Shown here piece by piece: positions 5,982-34,001 of a stretch of 64,000 nt of DNA. Position 1 is the first letter of the stretch. Each line of letters starts with the position of its first letter. The translations under genes and the position numbers were made by a program. Below the pieces are notes generated by a model, which searched no databases, was not told the DNA's origin, and saw only the letters and a list, made by a program, of their open reading frames with translations. This DNA comes from a virus (lineage: Duplodnaviria > Caudoviricetes), in the IMG/VR virus record IMGVR_UViG_2974513674_000001, positions 1 through 64,000 of that record; one strand, given 5' to 3'.

Positions 5982-6849
5982 ATGGGAAATCGTCGTTGAG
6001 CGGAACGACCAGGCCAAGCCGCGGTTCTCGCTGCTCGACACCATGCGGGTTGAGCCGGGCACCAAAGCTGACTGGGACGAGCTGCACGACCTGCACTACA
6101 AGGCAGAGTCGCTGCCCGCCGGCCCGCGGTACTGGCGCTGCGTGACTGAGGACGGAATTCTGGTAGGCATCGTGGTGTTCTCGACGGTGAGCCTCTTGCT
6201 CGCGCCGCGGCACCAGGTGTTCCCGAAGCTGAAGCCTGGCCAAGATAGCCACTTCACGAACGTACACCGGGCGACCTTCTTGAACGCGAACTTCCGCCGG
6301 GCGGCCCGCATCGTGACGGACACCATGTACCGCGGTGTTGGTGTTTCGTACCGGATGGTCAACCTGGCCATGCGAATGGAGCAGAAGCGGTTCATCGAAA
6401 TCCAGTCGTCGATGTCCAAGTTCAACCCGTTCGACATCAAAGCCGGGTTCAAGCACGCTCACCTGAAGCCCGCGGCGGCCTACGTTCAGGGTCTGAAGTT
6501 CATGCGGAGTCAGTTCAACGCTCACCCCGCTGACCACCAGGCTGTGATGGACGAGCTGAAATCCTTCACTCCGTCCCATCGGGCGCGTGTGATGACCGCG
6601 ATGCAAGAGTTCTACTACCGCCACAGCGCGAGGGAGAAGACTGGGAGCAACTTGAACGTGGGGACGGGGAAAGTCCAAGGGATGAAGCCGGAGCACCTCC
6701 TGCGTGAGCTACAGCAGCTTGTGTTCGCGAGCCCAGTTTACGGAATCTGGACCAACCCTGACCTGGGCCGGCCGATTCCACAATCGTTACCACTCCGGGC
6801 CTTTGACTTGCAGAGCCCGATTGAACCACTGAGGTTGGATTTGCTATGA
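5968..6849 (+). CDS. GNAT-fold (Mom-like) acyltransferase
   Basis: N-terminal LHY, acyl-CoA motif RIVTDTMYRGVGV, SSMSKFNPF..KAGF. Confidence 0.7.
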   Translation: MSQPEWEIVVERNDQAKPRFSLLDTMRVEPGTKADWDELHDLHYKAESLPAGPRYWRCVTEDGILVGIVVFSTVSLLLAPRHQVFPKLKPGQDSHFTNVHRATFLNANFRRAARIVTDTMYRGVGVSYRMVNLAMRMEQKRFIEIQSSMSKFNPFDIKAGFKHAHLKPAAAYVQGLKFMRSQFNAHPADHQAVMDELKSFTPSHRARVMTAMQEFYYRHSAREKTGSNLNVGTGKVQGMKPEHLLRELQQLVFASPVYGIWTNPDLGRPIPQSLPLRAFDLQSPIEPLRLDLL

Positions 6850-7187
6850 AACCACTGACCACGAAACAGCGCCATGTCATGAAGGTGATCGTGATGGGGA
6901 ACCTGGATGCCACTGGTAACCGGGTGTCAGACGTGGACGTCTATCAGTTGCAGAGCCGGCTACCGTATGAGACCTCCCGGGAGTCGCTGATGTGTAGCCT
7001 GGCGATCCTGAAGAAACAGGGCTGGGTGGTTCCGGGTGGTAAGGAGATTCGAGACGGTCGCAGCAAGCAGACCTTGGAACCGACAGCGGTAGCGATCCGG
7101 GTTATGAATCCTCCCAAACCTGTTGCTGCTCCGGTGTATGAAGAGATTGACCTGGATGATGATGTGGTTCTGTTGGAGCTAACCTGA
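6846..7187 (+). CDS. putative winged-helix DNA-binding protein
   Basis: LTTKQRHVM...SRESLMCSLAILKKQGWV...RDGRSKQTL pattern. Confidence 0.55.
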   Translation: MKPLTTKQRHVMKVIVMGNLDATGNRVSDVDVYQLQSRLPYETSRESLMCSLAILKKQGWVVPGGKEIRDGRSKQTLEPTAVAIRVMNPPKPVAAPVYEEIDLDDDVVLLELT

Positions 7188-7292
7188 TCCGGGTGCCTTG
7201 CTTTCCCTTTCTTTTTAACTACTTGTTTTTCTTAGAAGTCTTACAAGTTGTTAAGAGGGACAAGCAGTATAATCGTCGAGCGCAAGCCCGGA
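7188..7292. repeat. long imperfect AT-rich palindrome, copy 1
   Basis: TTAACTACTTGT/ACAAGTTGTTAA, TCCCT/AGGGA and TCCGGG/CCCGGA arms; related copy at 41058-41134. Confidence 0.65.
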
Positions 7293-7342
7293 AGCAAGTG
7301 GCAATACTGAATAGCCTACGAATAGCCTCAAAAAGCGTTTAT

Positions 7343-7371
7343 TTGACATTTTTTGAGCAATCCCGGACCAT
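7343..7371 (+). promoter_or_regulatory. promoter TTGACA-N17-GACCAT upstream of terS
   Basis: Perfect -35 and 17-nt spacer; flanked by a CTCAAAAA/TTTTTGAG inverted repeat. Confidence 0.55.
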
Positions 7372-16934: not shown

Positions 16935-17312
16935 ATGGATCTTCTGAACCTTGACGAACTGGTTGAACTGGAACGTCGCGTAGCAATCCGCGGTACTGAA
17001 TACGCAATCGTTGAACGCTCTGTCGGCGTAATGCTGGACAGCCTGCGGGTAGCGAAGGCAGCCACTGCCAAAGGCAAGAAGCAAACCGAAGAAGTCTTCT
17101 TCGAGAACATGATCAAGACCATTCAAACCATCATCCCGGAATGCCCGGAAGCGGTGGTACGTGGTCTGTCGATGGCCCAGATGATTGCGGTCTTCGAGTT
17201 CGCCAACCAAGACCCACAGAAGATGGCTGAAGAAGCGCTCGCCAGCCAGGAAGCCCGCCTGAACAACGGCGTCGTAGAAAGCGAAAGCGAAGTCGAAGCC
17301 CCAAAGGCTTAA
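16935..17312 (+). CDS. tail assembly chaperone (gpG-like)
   Basis: Between the tail tube and tape measure genes; ends in a C_CCA_AAG slippery site. Confidence 0.8.
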   Translation: MDLLNLDELVELERRVAIRGTEYAIVERSVGVMLDSLRVAKAATAKGKKQTEEVFFENMIKTIQTIIPECPEAVVRGLSMAQMIAVFEFANQDPQKMAEEALASQEARLNNGVVESESEVEAPKA

Positions 17313-17644
17313 CCGTCGAGGCGCTCGACTTCTCGTTCATCTTTTCCCGCTTCTGTTGGTTTTACGGTTGGACTGATACCCATGTGCTGGCTATGCCAGC
17401 ACGTCGGTTTTGGATGATGGACAGGCAGATCGGACGAATCCAGGCAGAGAACGAAATCCGCCAGATTCAGACGAACATGCTGACCCAGCAACCGCAAAGC
17501 AAAGAGCAACTCCAGCGCGTGACCGAACACATTGGACGGCTCACCCTGGACATCGGCGAGAAAGTGACGATTCGGCGGAACGCAATCGTAGCCCCGGAAC
17601 CAAGTGCTTCCGCCAAATTTATGAAATTAACAGGCGGAGGTTAA
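17300..17644 (+). CDS. gpT-like segment, expressed as a gpGT fusion by -1 frameshift
   Basis: The -1 frame is open from the slippery heptamer (PKGLTVEALDFSFIFSRFCWFYGW...LAMPARRFW) to 17644. Confidence 0.75.
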   Translation, partial: PKGLTVEALDFSFIFSRFCWFYGWTDTHVLAMPARRFWMMDRQIGRIQAENEIRQIQTNMLTQQPQSKEQLQRVTEHIGRLTLDIGEKVTIRRNAIVAPEPSASAKFMKLTGGG

Positions 17645-22261: not shown

Positions 22262-22641
22262 TGACTGAATATGCAGACCTGATTGGCTTTCCTTTCCGCT
22301 ACGGCGGCCGCAAGCTCTCTGATGGGTTTCTCGACTGCTACGGGCTAGTCATCGTCATGTCAGAGCGTGCGGGCAAGAAGCTCCCCGAACGCTCTGTGAG
22401 CGAAGATCACAGACTGGTTCATGCACTGATGATGTCGCAGATGAACGTCTGGGAGAGAGCACCAGGGCCAGCCGAAGGGCGCATCGTGCTCTTCAAGGTC
22501 AAGCGGGTAGCCTGTCACGTCGGCTACCTGATCAACGAGTTTGAATTTATCCACACCTGGGAAGACTCGGGCGGTGTTGTCGTCGAGAGACTGAGCAACT
22601 GGGAAAGAAAAATTGAGGGGTTCTATGAATACGTCGGTTAA
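22261..22641 (+). CDS. NlpC/P60 tail assembly protein (gpK-like)
   Basis: LIGFPFRYGGR..DCYGLV...HVG..FIH. Confidence 0.85.
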   Translation: MTEYADLIGFPFRYGGRKLSDGFLDCYGLVIVMSERAGKKLPERSVSEDHRLVHALMMSQMNVWERAPGPAEGRIVLFKVKRVACHVGYLINEFEFIHTWEDSGGVVVERLSNWERKIEGFYEYVG

Positions 22642-25600
22642 GACCAAAGAGCAGGTTCTCTTTGTCTATGTGAAGAACCCTCTGCAACCAGCAGAGAGCC
22701 GAGTCTGCGTCTCCAACGATCACGAAAAGAACCGTTCGCTGGCCGACTACCTGGGCGCCATCGAAGGGCGCTGGGCTGTGTCCGTCTCGGGCAAGCTGAT
22801 CGAGCAGGAAGACTGGGAGCAGACCTACCTGCAAGCGAATGACTGCGTGGTCGTCGCGCCCCTGATTGAAGGTGGTGGCGGCGGTGGCGGCAAGACCGTA
22901 CTCCGCCTGGTAGCGATCATCGCCCTGACCGTAGTATCCGCTGGTGCCGGTGCTGCTTTCGGTGCTGCTGCTGGTGGCGCCCTGGGTGTCTCTGCTGCCG
23001 CTGGTACTGCTCTGGTGTCCGCAGGTGTCATGATGGCAGGTACGATGGCGATCAACGCCCTGCTGCCGCCTGCGACCCCGAAAGCACCTGCATCCGGTTC
23101 CGACTACGACTCCAGCCCAACCTACGGCATCGACGGCCCGAAGAACATGAGTTCTCGGGGCATCCCTGTGCCTGTCGTTTACGGTGAGTCCTGGTTCGCA
23201 GGTAACTTCCTTCAGTCCTACGTCGATAACGTGGGCGATGACCAGTACCTGAACCTGCTGATCAACCTTGGTGAAGGCCCTGTTGAGGGCATCACCGAAA
23301 TCATGATCAACAACCAGCCGATGAACAACTTCTCGAACGTCGAGACGTGGTTCCGCAACGGCACCGAACATCAGACGATGATCCCGTACTTCGGCGACAT
23401 CATCGTGCCGGTCAACCGCAACCTCGATCTGCAACCCGGCGTCTACTCGCTGCACACCGTTGCAGACGCTGTTGACCGCCTGCGTGTGGACATCGTTATG
23501 CCAGGCGGTGTGAACCGCGCTGACGACGAAGACGGCTTGGTTCCGTTCACCGCTCTCTTCACGCTTGAGTTGCGTGAGGTAGGTGGCGCATGGGGTCCGT
23601 TCGTTGAGGGCGCAAGCACCGGTCAGGTCGCTATTGGTGGCAAGCAGATGTCTGCCCTGCGCCGCAGCTACTACAGCCGTACCCTGGACCGCAGCAAGCG
23701 CTACGAAGTTCGAGCGATCCACAACCAGTCCACTGACGACACCAACGTCAGCAACCGGGTGAGCCTGACCGACGTCAACTACATCACCTTCGACGACCTG
23801 ACCTACAAGCACACCGCTCTGTTCGGTATGCGGATCAAGCTGTCTGACCAGCTCAGCGGCATTCCATCGGTTCAGTACCGTCTGAAGGGCCGCAAGGTGC
23901 CGGTGTACAGTCCTCTGACTGGCGCATACGACGAGACCTTCACGTCGAACCCGGCGTGGATTGCTCTCGACGTTCTGATGCACAAGCGCTACGGCGGCGG
24001 CATCAGTGCATCCCGCATCAAGATGGAATACTTCCGTCAGTGGGCGACGTTCTGCGACCAGAACAACCTGAAGTTCAACGGCGCAATCGACCAGCGCACC
24101 AACCTGTGGGACGCCCTGGCGCCAATCTGCAAGGTAGGCCGTGCTCAGATCATTCGTGCCGGCACCCGCTTCCAGGTGTCGATGGTCCGCAAGCAGAAGC
24201 CCGTCCAGATGTTCTCGATGGGCAACATCAAGAAGGGCTCCCTGTCGATTGACTGGCTGGCAATGGACGAGCGCGCCAACGAATGTCACGTCAGCTACTA
24301 CGACAAGAACGACGGCGGCAAGCAGAAGACGGTCATCGTGCCGAACATGGCCGCCCGTGAGCGCGGTGAAGAGGCGAAGCCAACCGAGTTGACTCTGTAC
24401 GGCGTGGATAACGTCGAGCAGGCGACCCGTGAAGGCACGCTCGCCATGAACATGCAGCAGTTGCTGAAGACCATCAGCTTCGAGGCTCCAATCTCGGCAA
24501 TCGCCTGTACCCTGGGTGACGTGGTCGCAATCCAGCATGACGTTCCAGACTGGGGTCAGGGCGGCCTGACTGACGCCGGCAGCACCAAGAACGTCCTGGT
24601 GGTCGACAAGCCTGTCACTCAAGACCTGGGCGGCACCTACGTGGTTCGTGTTCGTCACGACAAGGTTCTGCAAGGCACTTGGGAAGTAGACGAGCTGATC
24701 GGCAACATCGTCGTGCCAACTGGCCCGTTCAATATCCAGATGTTCGAGCGCTACCGTCGTCTGTTCGTCCCAGGCACTGGGCAGGACTTCCAGATTCAAG
24801 AGCCGATCATCGACCAGTACGGCCGGCACGGTCTGCGCTTGAACAGCACTGCTGGTCTGAAGAAGGGCGACACCATTCAGCTCTTCGACACCGACGTGCT
24901 TGAGACGCGCTTCGTGGGCGCTGTGAGCCCCGATGGGCTGCGTATCACCCCAACACAAGCATTCAGCGCTATCCCGGGTCGTGAGACGCCCTGGGCGTTC
25001 GGTCTGAACGGCACCGAAGTCATGATGATGACCATCATGGACATCAGCGGTAAGGATGATCTGTGGAAGACCATCGGTGGTATCGAGTACAGCGATGCAG
25101 CCTACGACGACACCGTTGTGGACTACCCGCCTGACCCGACCAACACCAACCCGGTCATGCCGAACATCACGTTCAATGGGTTCAAAGAGCGCCGCTACCT
25201 GGTGGGCGCCGCGTACACCTCCGACGTCGAAATGACCTGGAGCTGCACTGACATTGCCTACGCCTACGCCGAAGTCCACATCAACATCGACGGTGAAGGC
25301 TGGAAGTTCATGGACGCGAACGCGACCTTCTACCAGTTGACCGCGATCAACAGTGGGTCGATTCAGCTCAAGCTGGTGCCGGTGACCATCGAAGGGTTCA
25401 AGCCGAACTTCAACGCTGTGCCGGTTCACACCTACACCGTAGAGGGCGGTGTACCGCGGAACCCTGATCCACCCCTGAACTTCCGGGTTGGGACTGTCAC
25501 CAACGACATCATCGAACTGCTGTGGGGCGACCTGAACGCCTGGTCTGCTGCTCAGAACGTGTACGCCTACGAAATCTGGCATGCTGAAGGTCAGGGCGCT

Positions 25601-26557
25601 GTTCTGGAATCGGCCCAACTGATCGCCGTGACCAAGAACGACCACTACCCTCACGTTGGTCTGCTGAAGAACTCCTGGCACACCTACTGGATTCGGACGA
25701 TCAACGTCACCGCGAAGAACGCGAAGTCTGCATTCATCCCGGCCGCCGGTCTGTCGGTGCAGTGCAAGGACAACGACCCATACGGGCTGATCGACCTCAC
25801 TGACCTGGCCCCGAGCCTGCGTGAGAGCATCAACGCGCCGAAGGTTCTCGAAGACCTGTCGCAGATCATTGCCAACGCCGCGACCAAGCTCGAAGAGACC
25901 GATGACGCTCAGAAGCAGGAGGTGTTCAACCGTAAGCAGGCTGTCGGTGAAGTAGCCGCATCCGTCAACGAGCAGGTAGCAGCAATCGCGGATGAGACCG
26001 AAGCGATGGCAGCCCGGATCACTCAGATGGAAGCGACCACCACGCCGGGCACCCAGGCGAAGATCGACGAGCTGGCTCAGGTGGTAGCAAACGGTGACTC
26101 CACTCTGGCTCAGCGTATCTCGCTGATGCAGGTGAAGTTCGCTGACGACCTGTCTGCCGCAATCGCCCAAGAGCAGACTGTCCGTGCTGACGCAATCAGC
26201 GCGCTGGCCAGTCAGGTGACCACGCTGACCTCGACCGTCGGTGAGAACACTGCAAGCCTGCAAGAGACGATGGAGGTTGTTGACGGTATCTCCGCGCAGT
26301 ACACGCTGCGGGTAGACATCAACGGGATCGTCTCGGGCTTCGGTATCGCAACCGGTGAAGGTGGTGTGTCCGAGTTCGCGATCATGGCCAGCCGGTTCAA
26401 GATTTACGGCCCAGGCCCGGGTGATACGGTGGTGAAGACTGCGGTGTTCAACGTGGATGCTGAGACTGGTGTCGCATACCTCCGCAACGCGGTGGTGGGC
26501 AACCTTCAGTCCGACAACTACATTTCTGGCGTGTCGGGGTGGTGCCTAAAAAAGTAG
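22625..26557 (+). CDS. central tail/host-specificity protein J with fused gpI-like N-terminus (short form)
   Basis: Ubiquitin-like plus hydrophobic N-terminus, IPVPVVYG, SNPAW, FN3 domain, coiled coil, DUF1983-like end NLQSDNYISGVSGW. Confidence 0.9.
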   Translation: MNTSVKTKEQVLFVYVKNPLQPAESRVCVSNDHEKNRSLADYLGAIEGRWAVSVSGKLIEQEDWEQTYLQANDCVVVAPLIEGGGGGGGKTVLRLVAIIALTVVSAGAGAAFGAAAGGALGVSAAAGTALVSAGVMMAGTMAINALLPPATPKAPASGSDYDSSPTYGIDGPKNMSSRGIPVPVVYGESWFAGNFLQSYVDNVGDDQYLNLLINLGEGPVEGITEIMINNQPMNNFSNVETWFRNGTEHQTMIPYFGDIIVPVNRNLDLQPGVYSLHTVADAVDRLRVDIVMPGGVNRADDEDGLVPFTALFTLELREVGGAWGPFVEGASTGQVAIGGKQMSALRRSYYSRTLDRSKRYEVRAIHNQSTDDTNVSNRVSLTDVNYITFDDLTYKHTALFGMRIKLSDQLSGIPSVQYRLKGRKVPVYSPLTGAYDETFTSNPAWIALDVLMHKRYGGGISASRIKMEYFRQWATFCDQNNLKFNGAIDQRTNLWDALAPICKVGRAQIIRAGTRFQVSMVRKQKPVQMFSMGNIKKGSLSIDWLAMDERANECHVSYYDKNDGGKQKTVIVPNMAARERGEEAKPTELTLYGVDNVEQATREGTLAMNMQQLLKTISFEAPISAIACTLGDVVAIQHDVPDWGQGGLTDAGSTKNVLVVDKPVTQDLGGTYVVRVRHDKVLQGTWEVDELIGNIVVPTGPFNIQMFERYRRLFVPGTGQDFQIQEPIIDQYGRHGLRLNSTAGLKKGDTIQLFDTDVLETRFVGAVSPDGLRITPTQAFSAIPGRETPWAFGLNGTEVMMMTIMDISGKDDLWKTIGGIEYSDAAYDDTVVDYPPDPTNTNPVMPNITFNGFKERRYLVGAAYTSDVEMTWSCTDIAYAYAEVHINIDGEGWKFMDANATFYQLTAINSGSIQLKLVPVTIEGFKPNFNAVPVHTYTVEGGVPRNPDPPLNFRVGTVTNDIIELLWGDLNAWSAAQNVYAYEIWHAEGQGAVLESAQLIAVTKNDHYPHVGLLKNSWHTYWIRTINVTAKNAKSAFIPAAGLSVQCKDNDPYGLIDLTDLAPSLRESINAPKVLEDLSQIIANAATKLEETDDAQKQEVFNRKQAVGEVAASVNEQVAAIADETEAMAARITQMEATTTPGTQAKIDELAQVVANGDSTLAQRISLMQVKFADDLSAAIAQEQTVRADAISALASQVTTLTSTVGENTASLQETMEVVDGISAQYTLRVDINGIVSGFGIATGEGGVSEFAIMASRFKIYGPGPGDTVVKTAVFNVDAETGVAYLRNAVVGNLQSDNYISGVSGWCLKK

Positions 26558-26592
26558 GTTCCATCACCCTGGAATACGACCGGGGTGATGGA
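26548..26592 (+). promoter_or_regulatory. programmed -1 ribosomal frameshift signal
   Basis: A_AAA_AAG at 26548-26554, in-frame TAG, 5-nt spacer, 13-bp hairpin TCCATCACCCTGG/CCGGGGTGATGGA. Confidence 0.8.
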
Positions 26593-27153
26593 GTGATCGA
26601 ATCACAAGCCTTCGACGCCGAGTTCCATAACGCCCTGATCACCGGTGACATCAGTGCCCTGACGGGCACTTTCACTGGCAAGCTGGATGCCAACGCAATC
26701 GACGCAGTGAGCCGGCTGAACATCGCCGGCCGCGCTGTAGCGATCACGAAAGCTGGCAAGCGGGCGAGCAGTGACGGTCTTGGTTTCGACGACGACGGTG
26801 TGTACCGCTCGTTGATCGACATCGCTCTGGAAGTTCCTCTTGGGACAACCAGCGGGGTATTCGTCGCGGCAAACCTCTCGTACCAGTGCGTGGATACGAA
26901 GGGCGACGAGAACAGCATGTTCCCATGCCAATACCGAATTATGGTTGACGGCGTGGCCTACTTCACAAGCGCCGTGGAGGCATGGGGCAACTGGTTCCTG
27001 ATGTTCGACTACCACATCCACGAAATGCTGCTGTACATGAAGGCTGGTCAGACCCACACCATCAGCCTTCAATACAGGTGGTTCGACCGTCCGACCAACG
27101 TGTATCCTCTCTTTAGGAACATCACCTATCGAGCCGACATTCTCAGGAAGTAA
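26554..27153 (+). CDS. J C-terminal module 1 (-1 frame continuation of J)
   Basis: AEFHNALITG...GTFTGKLDA...NIAGRAV; no clear RBS of its own. Confidence 0.75.
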   Translation, partial: VGSITLEYDRGDGVIESQAFDAEFHNALITGDISALTGTFTGKLDANAIDAVSRLNIAGRAVAITKAGKRASSDGLGFDDDGVYRSLIDIALEVPLGTTSGVFVAANLSYQCVDTKGDENSMFPCQYRIMVDGVAYFTSAVEAWGNWFLMFDYHIHEMLLYMKAGQTHTISLQYRWFDRPTNVYPLFRNITYRADILRK

Positions 27154-27154
27154 C

Positions 27155-27649
27155 ATGGCATTCGACGATACCAAAAACTATGCCGAGTTCGGCAACGCCT
27201 TCTTCAGAGGGCGTTTGAAGGGGGCCAAAGGAGAGGCTCGCTTCAAGCTGCAAGCCGACATCGTCAGCGCGGTGGATACGATCAACATCGCCGGCCAGGC
27301 TGTGACCTACACGGTCACGTCTCGCTACGGCCCAGGTTCAGGCGTGGGCGCGCAGACCGCAAACTCCGGCGGGGTTCTGTTTTCGACGGCGATCGACATT
27401 GTCGATGAGAACGTGTGGATCGAATTCATCGCCTATGGTGCAGGCGCTCAGTATTTCTACGTCGATGGTGTCCGACGCCCGTTGTACAGCGGCCGACGCC
27501 CAGGTGACAGGTGCATCCCTCATAACGAGGTCATTGAAATGGCGCCTGGCGTTCACACCATGTTCCTTTACGCCCCACCAGGGACTGTCTCTGGTGACGG
27601 CTTCATCATCTGTCGATACATTCGACCTACAGGGAGTGACCAGCTCTAA
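27155..27649 (+). CDS. free-standing J C-terminal-like module 2
   Basis: AEFGNAFFRG...KLQAD...NIAGQAVT; own RBS (AGGA). Confidence 0.75.
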   Translation: MAFDDTKNYAEFGNAFFRGRLKGAKGEARFKLQADIVSAVDTINIAGQAVTYTVTSRYGPGSGVGAQTANSGGVLFSTAIDIVDENVWIEFIAYGAGAQYFYVDGVRRPLYSGRRPGDRCIPHNEVIEMAPGVHTMFLYAPPGTVSGDGFIICRYIRPTGSDQL

Positions 27650-28179
27650 TGGCCGGATTAGCTGAGTGTCAGTTCAACACGAACTGCTGGATTCGAGGGC
27701 GCATGGTCGGCATGACCGGCACGTTCTCGGGTACGTTCAAAGCCGATGAGGTGGACATCATCAGCCATGCGAATATCCGCAACGGCGCGGTGACGTCCTA
27801 CCTTCAGTACAGCCGCAAGAAGCTACCTGGTGAGACAACCATTCGCGAGCTGGAGTGGACTGTGCCGGCCCAACCGATTGAGTCGGTGATCGACATCACC
27901 ATTCCATGCACGCTGCGTTTGAACGGCGGCCCGCCGGCGAACCCGAACGTCGTAGTGGTCATGCGAAACGGGGTGGAGATTGCCAGGTCGAACGTCGCTG
28001 TGGATCGAGGGCAGATTTCCCTGTTCTACTCGATCCGCTATATGGACTTCACCAACCCGGTCGGTGTCGCGTGCGTGTACAAGGTCTACATCATCCCAGC
28101 CAACACCAACGGCCAAGAGTCGCCAGGCGTGCGGTTCTGGATGAAGGGCAAAGCTCTGACTGGTATCCGCAAACGCTGA
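27649..28179 (+). CDS. free-standing J C-terminal-like module 3
   Basis: CQFNTNCWIRG...GTFSGTFKAD...NIRNGAVT; TAATG coupling. Confidence 0.75.
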   Translation: MAGLAECQFNTNCWIRGRMVGMTGTFSGTFKADEVDIISHANIRNGAVTSYLQYSRKKLPGETTIRELEWTVPAQPIESVIDITIPCTLRLNGGPPANPNVVVVMRNGVEIARSNVAVDRGQISLFYSIRYMDFTNPVGVACVYKVYIIPANTNGQESPGVRFWMKGKALTGIRKR

Positions 28180-28219: not shown

Positions 28220-28654
28220 ATGAAGGGTACGATTTACAACAAGATCACTGGTGCGATCAGTAGCATCGTCCAGGGTCCAGATGAGGCTTCCATTCAGCTT
28301 CAGTGCATGTTTGACGAGAACCTGGCCGCATACATCGGCGAAGAGCTGGATGCCGGCAAGTGGTACTTCGTGAATGGTCAGCCTGTTGAGCGCCAGTCTC
28401 TGGGCATGACGTTCGACCCGCCGCGTGAAGACAGCCCCAATGGCTACGAAGACGCCCAGATCACCCTGGCGCCAGGCCAAGTTCTGACCATCACTGGAAT
28501 CCCAGTTGGCATGGAGCTGATGTACCCAGGTGGTCGAGTGGTGGTGAACGACGGCTTCATTGAGTGGAGCTGCGACACACCCGGGACGTATTACTTCCGC
28601 ATGTTCACTGACATCAAATATGAAGGGGTAGCATTCGATGCCGTCGTTAGGTAA
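28220..28654 (+). CDS. tail-tip associated protein
   Basis: GTIYNKITGAI...WYFVNGQPVER pattern seen in fibre-assembly-type proteins; GAGG RBS. Confidence 0.6.
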   Translation: MKGTIYNKITGAISSIVQGPDEASIQLQCMFDENLAAYIGEELDAGKWYFVNGQPVERQSLGMTFDPPREDSPNGYEDAQITLAPGQVLTITGIPVGMELMYPGGRVVVNDGFIEWSCDTPGTYYFRMFTDIKYEGVAFDAVVR

Positions 28655-29018
28655 GCATGACGAACTGAGCGTAACGCGGGTTCACAAGGGTCAGATCGAC
28701 GAAGCGCGCGCCAAGTACGAGTGCCACGTTGAAACCAGCAAGGGCGTTATTCAGTTCGGCACCGACTGTCAGCGCCGGATGAACGCCGTTCTGCTCACGC
28801 TCACGCCTGGTAAGGGTGACACCGTCGAATGGAAGATGGCGGACAACAGCTATGTGACCCTGACGTTTGAAGAGCTGCGCGATCTGATCAACGAGGCGCA
28901 GAACCTCGCTGGCCCTAAGCTCTTGTCAGCGTTCCAGTACGCTCAGACGCTAAAGGGTAAGCTCGAAGCTGGAGGCTTCGTCTCAGAGCGCGACATTGCG
29001 CCCGAGAAGTGGCTGTAA
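28638..29018 (+). CDS. DUF4376-like tail assembly protein
   Basis: WKMADNSYVTLTFEEL motif. Confidence 0.65.
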   Translation: MPSLGKHDELSVTRVHKGQIDEARAKYECHVETSKGVIQFGTDCQRRMNAVLLTLTPGKGDTVEWKMADNSYVTLTFEELRDLINEAQNLAGPKLLSAFQYAQTLKGKLEAGGFVSERDIAPEKWL

Positions 29019-29070
29019 CGGAAAGTCAAGCCTGGTGTACACTGTCCCCCTATTTAGGGGGACTTTTACG

Positions 29071-31137
29071 ATGACCTGGTACACCACTGGCACCATCACT
29101 CTGGTGCAGGGCAGTAACGTAGCAACGGGCACTGGCGTTGAGTGGCTGGAGACTGTCCGCTACGGCGACATCCTCCTGGTCGACGACAAGCTCTACGAGG
29201 TGACTGGCCCGATCAACGAGGTCCAGATTCAGCTTGAGCGCCCATACACCGGCGCAACCATCCAGAATCGGCCATACGCGCTGATCCGCAACATGACCAA
29301 CGCCAGCAACTTCGATCTGATGCGCAAGATCGACGAGCTGCTGGAAGAGCGGTCGAGCAGCCTCACCCAATTCACCAACTGGGCAGCCGGTTCCGCGAAC
29401 GGTGGCCCGAACGGTGACGGTCGTTACCCGCTGACCAACCGGGTTGGTGTCGTCGAGCTGGTCTACAGCCCCGCCAAGATGCAGACGATGGCCGGCATCG
29501 ACCAGTCGGAAGCGATCAACACCCTGAAGCAGCAGGTCACCACCCTCAACACCATGCTGGCCGACTACGCCGACATCAAGCAGAAGGTTGAGGCGTATGC
29601 GAACATCACTCTGGAAAGCCTGGGCGCTCAGCCAGAGAACGCCAAGCTGAACTCCATTGCCAGCCTGACCTTTGCGGGCGGTGAAATCATCGTGTCCATC
29701 AACGACACCGCATTTGCCAAATACCCGATCAGTGACCGCGGCCTGGCGTTCCTTGCAGCAGGAACCCCGAAAGACATGCGAGCTGTTATCGGTGCAGGTA
29801 CGGGCGGTGGTGCAGGAGCAGGCGGTGGTGGCGTCCCTGGGCGCCGTGTAGCGATTATCGGGACTTCTCTGTGTCAGCTTAGCGACTACGGGACAGCGAC
29901 CGAAATCTCGCACACCAGCCGCTCCTGGATTGGCTGGGCGAAGATTCTCACCGGCGGCCGACTGATGACCCCGATCTGGCACGACATGAACCTGTACCCA
30001 GGCTGGGAGCAGGGCAACAACGTGGGCAAGCCACGCGGGTTCCGCGGACTCAATGCCGGCGTGTCGAGCGACAACGCCCCGAACATCATGGATCGAGCCG
30101 CATACCTGGTGAACGAGGTCGAGTGCGACATCGTGGTCATTGATAGCGGCATCAACGACATCGGCAGCGGGCTGACTGCTGACGACATCCATAGCCTGCG
30201 CGTTCAGACAGCCGAGTACCTGATTGCCAACGGTCGCATCGTCGTGCTGCTGACCCTGCCGAGCGCCGGTGAGAACTACTACCCGGCGGGCTCGCCCCAG
30301 CGGAAGAAAGCGCAGCGCGTGAACAACCTGTCTCGTCAGTGGGCTCAAGGCAAGAAGAACCTGTACCTGTTCGACTGGGCCGAGCCGATGATCAACTTCG
30401 ACAACCCGACCGGCATCCCGAAAGACCTGTTCACTGTTGACGGTGTCCACTTCGCCCCGCGTGGTGCGTTCGCTGTGGGCAAGAAGCTCGCTGAGCTGTT
30501 CACGACCCTTCTCCCAATCGCAGAGCGTCGAGTCTGGAGCCCGGAAGACCTCTACGATGCAGCCGCCAACCCGTTCGGCAACCTGTTGCCCAACCCGTTC
30601 TGTCAGGGTGGTGCAGGTATCCTCGACGCCGGCGGCACCGGGGCGGTAGCGAACTTCTATCGCGGTGGCCTGAACAGCGGTGACGGCAACGCCGTCTACT
30701 CGAAGGTTGCAAAGCGTAGTGGTCGTGGCCAGGCCCAGCGTGTCGTCGTCACCCCTGGTACAATCGACACTCAAGCCCTGTTCCGAGTGAGCGACATCAC
30801 CCACACTCTGCCCGAAGGAACCTGGGTCCAGGGTAGCGTCGAGATTGACTGTGACGCCTGGGATGGCTTCAGGGGCATCGACTTGCAGATTCGTGACCTG
30901 GCTGCTGGCGGTCTGACCACCCGAGCTTGCAAGGTGTATGACGGTTTTCCTCACACTGCTGAAGCCTGGAGTGGCACAATCATCACCCCGCCATTCCAGA
31001 TCAAAGCCGGCGGGCAGCTTCGCTGGCGCGTAGAAATCACCGCAATCGGCGGTGCGGCAGGAAGCGGTACGGTTGAAGTAGGTGCCTGTGAGCTGCGCCC
31101 TGTGACCGATCCAAAACTCATTGTGAATGCGGAGTAA
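29071..31137 (+). CDS. tail fibre/spike 1 with SGNH esterase and C-terminal jelly-roll-like domain
   Basis: WYTTGTITL virion anchor; GTSL, NAGVS, SGIND and DGVH catalytic blocks. Confidence 0.8.
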   Translation: MTWYTTGTITLVQGSNVATGTGVEWLETVRYGDILLVDDKLYEVTGPINEVQIQLERPYTGATIQNRPYALIRNMTNASNFDLMRKIDELLEERSSSLTQFTNWAAGSANGGPNGDGRYPLTNRVGVVELVYSPAKMQTMAGIDQSEAINTLKQQVTTLNTMLADYADIKQKVEAYANITLESLGAQPENAKLNSIASLTFAGGEIIVSINDTAFAKYPISDRGLAFLAAGTPKDMRAVIGAGTGGGAGAGGGGVPGRRVAIIGTSLCQLSDYGTATEISHTSRSWIGWAKILTGGRLMTPIWHDMNLYPGWEQGNNVGKPRGFRGLNAGVSSDNAPNIMDRAAYLVNEVECDIVVIDSGINDIGSGLTADDIHSLRVQTAEYLIANGRIVVLLTLPSAGENYYPAGSPQRKKAQRVNNLSRQWAQGKKNLYLFDWAEPMINFDNPTGIPKDLFTVDGVHFAPRGAFAVGKKLAELFTTLLPIAERRVWSPEDLYDAAANPFGNLLPNPFCQGGAGILDAGGTGAVANFYRGGLNSGDGNAVYSKVAKRSGRGQAQRVVVTPGTIDTQALFRVSDITHTLPEGTWVQGSVEIDCDAWDGFRGIDLQIRDLAAGGLTTRACKVYDGFPHTAEAWSGTIITPPFQIKAGGQLRWRVEITAIGGAAGSGTVEVGACELRPVTDPKLIVNAE

Positions 31138-31139
31138 GC

Positions 31140-34001
31140 ATGGCCTGGTATAACGATGGCACTATCACCGTGACGAACGGCAGCAAAATCGTCACGGGCG
31201 TGGACACTCAGTTCCTGAGCAACATTCGCAACGGGGCGATCCTCATGATCGGCCCCAAGTTGCGGGTGATCAACGACATCATCAGCGACACCGAGCTTCA
31301 GCTTGAGGTCGAGTACGATGGCCCTACTCAGACTGGCATCGTCTACGAAATCATCCGCAACTGGCAGGACACCAGCCCGACTGAGCTTGCACGCCGGATC
31401 GACAACTTCCTGACCGACCGCCAGCGCTCGATGGACGAGTTCGTCACCTGGGTGAACGGCACCTACAACGGCGGGAAGAACAGCGACGGCAAGTACCCGC
31501 TGACTGACCGCTACGGCGTCGTTCGCCTGGTGAAGAGCCCTGCCCGGATGGAGTATGAAACCGGTGGCCCGGGTAATGGTGGCGGGACTGGCGATCTGAC
31601 CGGTGCCGGCATCTACCTGGCCAGCGCGTTCGGCGTCATGGGTGGCCTGGGCATCGACGAGACTGACAACATCAACCTGGCTCTCAAAGACCTTGAAGCC
31701 AAGGGTGGCGGCAAGCTGATCGTTCGCAGCCACAACGGTATCGACCCGATCTTCATCGACGGTCTGATCGCCATCGAGAACCACAACATTACCCTGGAGT
31801 TCGCCAGCGACATCGTCTATGGCTCGAAGGGCTGGATGCGTATCTCTGGTGGCCTGGCTGAGATTCGCCGCCCAGGGCAGACTGAGCTGCTGAAGCTCCG
31901 GGTCAAGAGCTACGCCCGCGAAGACGGTCTGATGGTTCTGCCAATGCGGGAGAACAACGGTTCGTTCCTGCAAGTCGGTGATCGAATCACCGTTCGTGGT
32001 GAGAACGACAAGAACGGCAAGGTGATCGAGAAGCAGGTGACCATCGTCAAGGAGATTATCGGAGACGACTGCATCTGCACCGACGAGCCGGACTACACCT
32101 TCGAGCCGACCTACCCTAACTCCGAGTTCCCTGACGACTGGACGACCGGTACGACTATCTCGATCAGCGTCTACTCGGCCATGACTGGCGACATCAAGAA
32201 CACCGACGTGATTCCTGTTGTAGACACAGCCGGCTTCTTCCCGGGTGACCTGGTGTACATCAGCGATGCCCGTACCGAGCGGGACGTAATGAACACCACG
32301 CCGCCGGCGAACCTGCTGTCTGCTGCGGTCATGGAAATCTGCCGTATCGCCGCCATCGAAGGCAACAACATCCGCCTTGAGCGCGCAGTCCGTCGTGAGT
32401 ACCTGACTGCCTGGTCTGCTGGTGTGACCAAGATGGACGCCATCAAGAACAGCCACATCAAGCTGCGCGGTGTGACCTGGAACGCACCACAGCCAGATCG
32501 GAAAGCGCACGGCGCCGCGATCAACTACGGCTGGGGCTGCACCGTCAAGGTCGACGAAATGCAAGGTCGCGGTGGCCGGAAAGGTATCGGTGTGCGTGTT
32601 GCCTACGCCTACGACTGCCACGTTCTGGAGTCCAAGATTTACGACGCCTTCAGCTTTGGTTCGGCCGAAGGCTACGGCATCAGCTTGTACTACTCGACCA
32701 TGTGCTCGATTCGCTTCTGCAACGCCAGCGGCAACCGTCACAACTACCTGCTTCAGACCTCGACTTCGTGTGAAATCCTCGACAACCACTCGAACGATGA
32801 CTACATCAGCGGGATCGACTTGCACGGTGCCGGCTCTGTTGACTGCCGTGTGATGCGCAACCGTTGCTCGCGCTCGAAGTCGTATGCGGACGGTGTGACC
32901 AACGGCGGCGCGATTCGTAACGGCAACACCTCGCACACCATCGGCGACCACCGCACTGTGATTGCGGACAACTACATCGAAGGCTACCTGGACACCAAGT
33001 GTGCAGCCATCGACGTGTCCCCGTCCTCGCAAGACGTGATCGTCCGCAACAACGATGTCGTGGACTGCCGCGTAGGCTTCCGTCACTACAAGATCAACAG
33101 CGGCATCAGCCCTGTTCAGCGAGCCAACCGTGTGACCCTGGAAGGGAACAACTTCACTCGGGTCGAGCAGATTCTGGACGTGAACAACTACGCCAACTCG
33201 GTCTTCGACGAGGTGATCCTGATCGGCAACAAGTCCATCGAGAACAAGCAGCACTTCGTGGTGAAGAACATCCCGAAAGTCCTGGCGATGGAGAACAAGA
33301 TCATCCGCCCAGTACCGACGGCCGGCGCGCACGCATTCGAGTTCGACGGCTGCGGTAACGTGAAGGCTTACAGCAACTACGCCGGTGAAGCTGCGCGTGC
33401 GTTCAAGATCACCGGCACCGCCTATGCGAAGCTGGTCCGCAACATGCTGGATGACTGCACCGAATCGACCGGTATCACTGACGGTGGCGGTAACGGAACT
33501 GTGATCAGCCTTCAGAACACCGACGTGCCAGCAGGTGGCGGTGGTACTGCGGCGCCGGTGAAGATGACTCGCATCGACGGCACCCTGGCTGTTAACGCAA
33601 CCAGCACCGACCCGGTGAACATCAACACCGACGTGCCGAGCATCGCAAACGGCCTGACAGCCGTTCAGGGGCAGGTAAGTGTCGCAGTCGGGAGTTTGAT
33701 CGAGGTCTACGCAATCGCCCCGTATGTGAGCATGGGCGGAACTACAGGCCCGGTGACTGCGCATCTGTGGGCAGATGGGGTTCGGGTAGCAACTTCGGTT
33801 GACCGCATCACTGCATCCGGCGGCGCAGAGAACACCGGTGGTAAAGACTTCGTCCTGGTCGGGGTGTTCTACGCCACTGAGGAAATTCTGGACCTGGTGA
33901 TGAAGATCGGCCCGAACAGCAACGCCAACACCATCATGATGAACAGCAAGTGGGGCGGCGCGAGCCAGCCATACATCATCGTTAAGGAGTACCCGCAATG
34001 A
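31140..34001 (+). CDS. tail spike 2, parallel beta-helix depolymerase
   Basis: Anchor homologous to fibre 1; FGVMGG..DETDNINLAL..GGGKL pectate-lyase-3-like start; Asn-ladder repeats. Confidence 0.8.
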   Translation: MAWYNDGTITVTNGSKIVTGVDTQFLSNIRNGAILMIGPKLRVINDIISDTELQLEVEYDGPTQTGIVYEIIRNWQDTSPTELARRIDNFLTDRQRSMDEFVTWVNGTYNGGKNSDGKYPLTDRYGVVRLVKSPARMEYETGGPGNGGGTGDLTGAGIYLASAFGVMGGLGIDETDNINLALKDLEAKGGGKLIVRSHNGIDPIFIDGLIAIENHNITLEFASDIVYGSKGWMRISGGLAEIRRPGQTELLKLRVKSYAREDGLMVLPMRENNGSFLQVGDRITVRGENDKNGKVIEKQVTIVKEIIGDDCICTDEPDYTFEPTYPNSEFPDDWTTGTTISISVYSAMTGDIKNTDVIPVVDTAGFFPGDLVYISDARTERDVMNTTPPANLLSAAVMEICRIAAIEGNNIRLERAVRREYLTAWSAGVTKMDAIKNSHIKLRGVTWNAPQPDRKAHGAAINYGWGCTVKVDEMQGRGGRKGIGVRVAYAYDCHVLESKIYDAFSFGSAEGYGISLYYSTMCSIRFCNASGNRHNYLLQTSTSCEILDNHSNDDYISGIDLHGAGSVDCRVMRNRCSRSKSYADGVTNGGAIRNGNTSHTIGDHRTVIADNYIEGYLDTKCAAIDVSPSSQDVIVRNNDVVDCRVGFRHYKINSGISPVQRANRVTLEGNNFTRVEQILDVNNYANSVFDEVILIGNKSIENKQHFVVKNIPKVLAMENKIIRPVPTAGAHAFEFDGCGNVKAYSNYAGEAARAFKITGTAYAKLVRNMLDDCTESTGITDGGGNGTVISLQNTDVPAGGGGTAAPVKMTRIDGTLAVNATSTDPVNINTDVPSIANGLTAVQGQVSVAVGSLIEVYAIAPYVSMGGTTGPVTAHLWADGVRVATSVDRITASGGAENTGGKDFVLVGVFYATEEILDLVMKIGPNSNANTIMMNSKWGGASQPYIIVKEYPQ

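Follow-up and report, generated by a model that had tools for sequence, protein, structure and literature searches.

A probable programmed -1 frameshift in the central tail fibre gene of a Nickievirus-like phage, and a conserved three-module cassette that may form an asymmetric fibre tip

How is a central tail fibre completed when its gene stops inside the fibre shaft, and what purpose is served by the three related modules that follow the stop? This question is raised by a stretch of 64,000 nucleotides (hereafter the window), the first 64 kb of the 112,225-base virus record IMGVR_UViG_2974513674_000001, which belongs to a Nickievirus-like Pseudomonas siphophage. The gene concerned, J (22625..26557; all features described here lie on the + strand), has the sequence GAGGGG before its ATG at 22625 and encodes a protein of 1310 aa with the domains PF24801, PF13550 and PF09327 (phrog_31, E-value 9e-183). 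By these domains and by its place, downstream of the tape measure gene in the tail-tip operon, J is lambda gpJ-like. However, its straight fibre and head are not finished in one reading frame, unlike the gpJ-like standard. Comparison of 14 loci indicates that programmed -1 frameshifting very probably yields both a short and a long form of J, and the long form may share a three-headed tip with two free modules encoded directly downstream.

The short form of J ends with Gly-Trp-x-Leu-Lys-Lys inside the central straight fibre, and its PF09327 match breaks off at position 117 of 139, the completion being found in the -1 frame. The TAG stop (26555..26557) abuts the heptamer A_AAA_AAG (26548..26554), which is set in the J frame as a -1 slippery site of the type X_XXY_YYZ. 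After a spacer of 5 nt there is a putative stimulatory hairpin (26560..26592) of 13 bp, one of these being G-U, with a 7-nt loop. A -1 slip adds 199 codons and gives a fusion of 1509 aa, the C-terminal extension being module 1 (26554..27153) with a stalk (approximately 26617-26739) and a head (26740-27150). This frame restores the normal end of J, because in P0149 and P0150, natural J proteins without a split, the Gly-Trp motif, a module-type stalk and a terminal beta domain all lie in one frame. An insertion of about 16 residues, missing from unsplit J proteins, comes for the most part from the -1 translation of the spacer and hairpin; the model of module 1 renders it as a beta-hairpin at residues 8-26 (pLDDT 60-70).

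The heptamer is that of dnaX, the most shift-prone one tested in Escherichia coli (PMC5009743). In the window the hairpin has a z-score of -4.75 against shuffled sequences, while the 50 nt 3' of the site have a fold stability above that of 99.7% of the 50-nt windows of the genome and fold more stably than those 3' of any other run of six A and a purine in it. A first-pass annotation of the window had described the end of J on the heptamer, the hairpin 5 nt beyond it and the 199-codon continuation into a module without a clear ribosome-binding site; all of this was borne out, no Shine-Dalgarno sequence being present for module 1.

Among 50,697 phage records, the fibre region has matches only in the nickieviruses hairong, phiK7B1, ZY21 and Nican01, which infect Pseudomonas syringae. 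The 14 loci compared consist of the window, these four GenBank phages, eight IMG/VR or metagenome loci and one Endozoicomonas element; some of the fibres are N4-like or of another probable podophage type. The last of these loci, L042 (NZ_CP103299.1, 3611-6886), lies on a 54-kb "plasmid" of Endozoicomonas gorgoniicola, where a 265-aa fibre next to virion genes bears the complete cassette; this element of a cultured host probably represents a phage or a phage-plasmid. Scanning viral contigs for the DNA pattern returned nine unrelated matches and one already known locus, and a scan of genome contigs gave no relative. J-like genes that are unsplit and without modules were found in SSU5, PMBT3, Bas01, YH30, L007/L008 and L040.

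Conservation of the heptamer, the hairpin and the three-module array in related phages had been suggested as a check, and all three are present in 14 of the 14 loci. The heptamer is identical throughout, with the hairpin placed 4-6 nt downstream (z-scores -2.1 to -4.8). The stop of short J is at the same place in 13 of the 14, and in L042 it is shifted five codons further on with the heptamer retained. The hairpin itself is not simply inherited, as its stem is built from different sequence in L035/L038 and in L036, and in L012 and L014 its 3' arm is drawn from 7 nt further downstream. Among six close relatives (the pairs are not independent), there are no synonymous differences in the last six J codons (0/75), and their frequency is 0.16 in the spacer and hairpin versus 0.37 and 0.46 in the flanks. 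Translated in the -1 frame, heptamer and stop give Lys-Lys-Val/Ile-Gly, which is kept in all 34 of the module 1 homologs examined, the preceding -1 residues being variable. Taken together, these comparisons give strong support to partial frameshifting into a 1310-aa and a 1509-aa J.

As the break falls in a homopolymer, an assembly error, or a recent deletion of one A inactivating a single J gene, would be the simplest explanation, and the first-pass annotation had named a missing seventh A as its own possible undoing. This explanation was rejected, and is given next to no probability: the same six A are present in the window, in the four GenBank phages and in the nine other loci, and the independent contigs have no indel at the site. 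Nor is such an error compatible with stems that have been rebuilt, with the suppression of synonymous change, or with the two loci that have no upstream start codon. Transcriptional slippage at the A run is less likely than ribosomal frameshifting, since there are only six A and the conservation of spacer and stem would appear to speak against it.

It is also conceivable that no frameshift takes place and that module 1 is started separately by translational coupling, from the GTG at 26539 or at 26542, with three free modules then capping a homotrimer of short J. These two codons lie upstream of the site in the -1 frame, a GTG precedes the site in 11 of the 13 loci tested and also in L042, annotators call module 1 a separate gene, and L035 has a Met just ahead of the stalk. 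But the GTG codons taken as starts by the annotators are by-products of the Gly-Trp codons of J and are absent in L035 and L038, whose -1 frame has no ATG, GTG or TTG upstream. Module 1 lacks a Shine-Dalgarno sequence, and a separate start leaves unexplained the invariant heptamer, the conserved spacer and the stems rebuilt from new sequence; we therefore regard it as quite improbable. A dnaX-type signal can include an internal Shine-Dalgarno-like stimulator about 10 nt upstream of the heptamer. Most loci have a GGGG run 8 nt upstream, but it is imposed by the same Gly-Trp codons and is absent in L016, L035 and L038. The two GTG codons do affect one proposal made earlier, that the tryptic peptide K.VGSITLEYDR would prove the junction. 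As both precede the site in the -1 frame, this peptide cannot separate frameshifting from separate initiation and is not diagnostic.

The window has genes for tRNA-Met and tRNA-Asn (1267-1428) and no tRNA-Lys gene was found in the whole 112,225-base record, so the shift would depend on the host lysine tRNA. There is a second candidate site upstream in the same tail operon, at 16935-17644, where C_CCA_AAG (17300-17306) lies one codon before the stop of a 125-aa gene and the -1 frame is open to just before the tape measure gene. This is a probable G/GT tail-assembly-chaperone -1 frameshift, and if so the tail operon of this genome would have two -1 shifts.

Module 1 is followed by two free paralogs. 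Module 2 (27155..27649, 164 aa) has its ATG one base past the stop of module 1, and the start of module 3 (27649..28179, 176 aa) overlaps the stop of module 2. The N-terminal stretch common to the three, already recognized in the first-pass annotation, is confirmed by hhalign with E-values of 1.6e-11, 7e-14 and 3e-7. The accompanying claim of three different distal domains was half right, in that the heads are homologous: module 1 aligns to module 2 over 125 columns and to module 3 over 110 columns, heads included, with modules 2 and 3 aligning to each other over the stalk only. The heads are diverged paralogs of one jelly-roll fold.

In models of modules 1 and 2 the head is a confidently predicted beta-sandwich. 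The top Foldseek matches of module 1 are to lambda gpJ (8xcj/8xck, E-value 6e-6, TMq 0.39), and VIA-align ranks trimeric TNF/C1q-like heads first (Pgp3, BC2L-C, PLTL and a cyanophage tail-fibre domain), with Z of about 9 for module 1 (9.4 at best) and 7-8 for module 2 (7.9-8.0 at best), whose model is likewise a jelly roll. Foldseek gave no match for module 2 at an E-value of 0.001 or lower, and none came from searching solved structures with a module 1 profile. With module 3, the nearest clusters in the ESM Atlas are of the gpJ C-terminal receptor-binding domain PF12421 (0.95). The modules are best read as diverged J-type heads. There are also about 55 distant free proteins resembling module 3 (P0090-P0147, P0152), with less than 50% identity and some with N-terminal extensions, which suggests a much wider family.

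What, then, are modules 2 and 3 for? The modules number exactly three, in the same order, in each of the 14 loci, and searches from either module 1 or module 3 returned no locus with one, two or four. Modules 2 and 3 are tightly coupled, each having its start only a few bases from the preceding stop. A tree of the modules of ten loci resolves into three clades according to position (support 100/99, 100/99 and 98/96). Conservation is higher in the stalk (0.73-0.87) than in the heads (0.50-0.56); it is position-specific in the stalk and last strand, and the heads are variable. The starting points of the modules are also informative. Counted from the Trp, the conserved Glu of unsplit J is nine residues on and the end of short J four residues on; the 4 residues in between correspond exactly to those ahead of this Glu in module 2 of L042 and of five divergent loci. 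The leading residues of modules 2 and 3, set against the end of short J, therefore identify the free modules as the piece missing from the short chains.

On this basis the following architecture is proposed. Ribosomes translating J would either stop at 26555, giving a short J which ends within the beta-sheet shaft, or slip by -1 on A_AAA_AAG with stimulation by the hairpin, giving a long J to which module 1 adds the final strands of the shaft and a receptor-binding head. J would assemble as a trimer. Modules 2 and 3 would dock onto the ends of two short chains and pair with module 1 of a single long chain, so that a stalk of three chains bears a C1q-like tip with three heads. Such a tip would be anchored covalently through one chain and would present three binding faces, each different from the others. 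As judged from the sequence comparisons, modules 2 and 3 are likely to sit in the tip. A strict 1:1:1 composition, as the first-pass annotation had envisaged (one long chain, two short chains, one module 2 and one module 3), is on balance favoured: it is the best reading because of the fixed number and order, the three clades and the start points that complement the truncated chain.

Should the frameshift be real, modules 2 and 3 might instead cap short J without fixed composition, with homotrimeric or mixed tips giving several receptor specificities within a population. Such tips would be consistent with the variable heads and with a fold that is normally homotrimeric (PMC11101478), and every combination of long and short J would be used. 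A similar alternative of interchangeable tips was offered in the first-pass annotation. It is disfavoured by the constant number and order of modules in 14 of 14 loci, the absence of any one-, two- or four-module locus from the searches mentioned and the old, separate clade that each position forms, with signatures of its own in the stalk and last strand, and variable composition is considered rather unlikely. Another possibility is that a homotrimer of long J forms the tip and that modules 2 and 3 are assembly helpers, part of another fibre or soluble decoys. Genes of possible chaperone type do follow, but this would leave both the short J and the conservation of a stop behind the shift site without a reason. 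In addition, the break point is where modules 2 and 3 start, and both retain a stalk needing three chains; we hold this possibility to be improbable.

The 1:1:1 tip with J-type heads also has several points weighing against it. The stalk is of low confidence in the monomer models of modules 1 and 2, which would be expected if the segment folds only with partner chains. Lambda gpJ is not among the best 50 VIA-align matches for module 1, nor for module 2, and the Pfam family PF12421 has no match to any module. The leading residues are not always exactly 4, there being 10-12 of them in Nickie-like module 2 and 6-9 in module 3. Random trimerization would give at most 44% of trimers with one long chain, so assembly must either select or waste chains. 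Finally, fixed clades mean distinct roles, and these do not of necessity imply one complex.

The modules, together with two companion genes, behave as one unit. The cassette occurs unchanged on siphophage J proteins of 1300-1670 aa, and is intact on the 388-aa fibre of L035, 45% identical to the Litunavirus gp56 ortholog, and on fibres of 265 and 338 aa beside a phrog_511 gene. We give a little better than even chances to the full proposal of a portable five-gene cassette which has moved between siphophage and podophage fibres, where frameshifting would break the threefold symmetry of the trimer and one extended chain would nucleate an obligate 1:1:1 head.

Parts of this arrangement have counterparts elsewhere. 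Lambda gpJ (8XCJ, 8XCK; PMC11101478) has homologous hub, FNIII and straight-fibre domains and a C-terminal head which is a trimer, but it is a homotrimer made in one reading frame, whereas the end of the window J is linked by a frameshift and exists as three paralogs, two of them free. E. coli dnaX has the same A_AAA_AAG with a downstream stem-loop, although its products are clamp-loader subunits made with a shift of about 50% and the window product is a virion fibre (PMC5009743). Candidates with a zero-frame stop after the site, and a long product needing the shift, are mentioned in the same review. Frameshifts that give a long and a short morphogenesis protein are also found in phages T3, A2, A118 and PSA (Ig-like domains on capsid or tail tube) and in lambda G/GT (PMC5009743). 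In these the shift either sets a chaperone ratio or extends a protein of many copies by an optional domain, while in the window it would restore the fibre's own end in a three-copy protein, with free paralogs filling the gap.

With respect to the cassette, Pseudomonas phage DEV gp56-gp55-gp54 and the receptor-binding protein loci of Drexlerviridae (PMC12892993, PMC8594841) likewise have a J-like trimer and two coupled downstream products at the tip, forming a portable module; gp55 and gp54 are present in one copy each in an AlphaFold3 model (PMC12892993). However, DEV gp56 is complete and unshifted, and gp55 and gp54 are not copies of the fibre's own end, unlike modules 2 and 3. The gp55 and gp54 orthologs gave an hhalign probability of 0.3% against modules 2 and 3, the comparison being with single YH30 orthologs and of limited sensitivity. 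The tripartite tail proteins of virophage DSLV2, to be compared here together with the C1q globular head, are also three adjacent paralogs with clades by gene position and have been shown to form a 1:1:1 heterotrimer (PMC12724248). They differ in having a gp37 collar/needle fold, in all three chains being free with no frameshift, and in not belonging to a tailed-phage central fibre. The system as a whole is a member of none of these, as gpJ is unsplit, the gp55/gp54 orthologs show no homology in the comparison just given and DSLV2 has another fold and no frameshift. It is real, conserved and built from known parts, and apparently undescribed, no description of the frameshift or cassette having been found in a literature coverage largely outside subscription journals.

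If the proposed architecture is true, a frameshift would select, in a virion protein present in three copies, the chain to be completed, a use for which no report was found, and recoding would set the subunit composition of a single receptor-binding device. A fibre that is itself symmetric could thereby meet a monomeric receptor or a complex glycan with a binding surface that is not. In the GenBank annotation of hairong, phiK7B1, ZY21 and Nican01, J is a "putative tail protein" followed by hypothetical genes; every sequenced nickievirus, a group considered as candidates for the biocontrol of P. syringae, would thus have a wrongly annotated J, and three "hypothetical" genes may share the host-range determinant between them.

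The first of the two companion genes (28220..28654) encodes a conserved protein of 144 aa, follows module 3 in every locus inspected and has a TM of 0.43 to a DUF4376 protein. The second (28638..29018), which is conserved with the cassette and likewise present downstream of the modules in all loci inspected, encodes a 126-aa DUF4376 protein (PF14301, E-value 2e-8). The two (28220-29018) may constitute a split tail-fibre assembly chaperone, of which the 144-aa protein could, tentatively, be the N-terminal half. In L014 an ORF of about 316 codons, methyltransferase-like by eye (6410-7360), is situated between module 3 and the companion genes. Further downstream in the window, at 28996-34001, there are a GDSL-domain protein (713 aa) and a NosD-like beta-helix protein of 953 aa with a similar N-terminal region, which probably represent side fibres or spikes whose domains act on carbohydrates.

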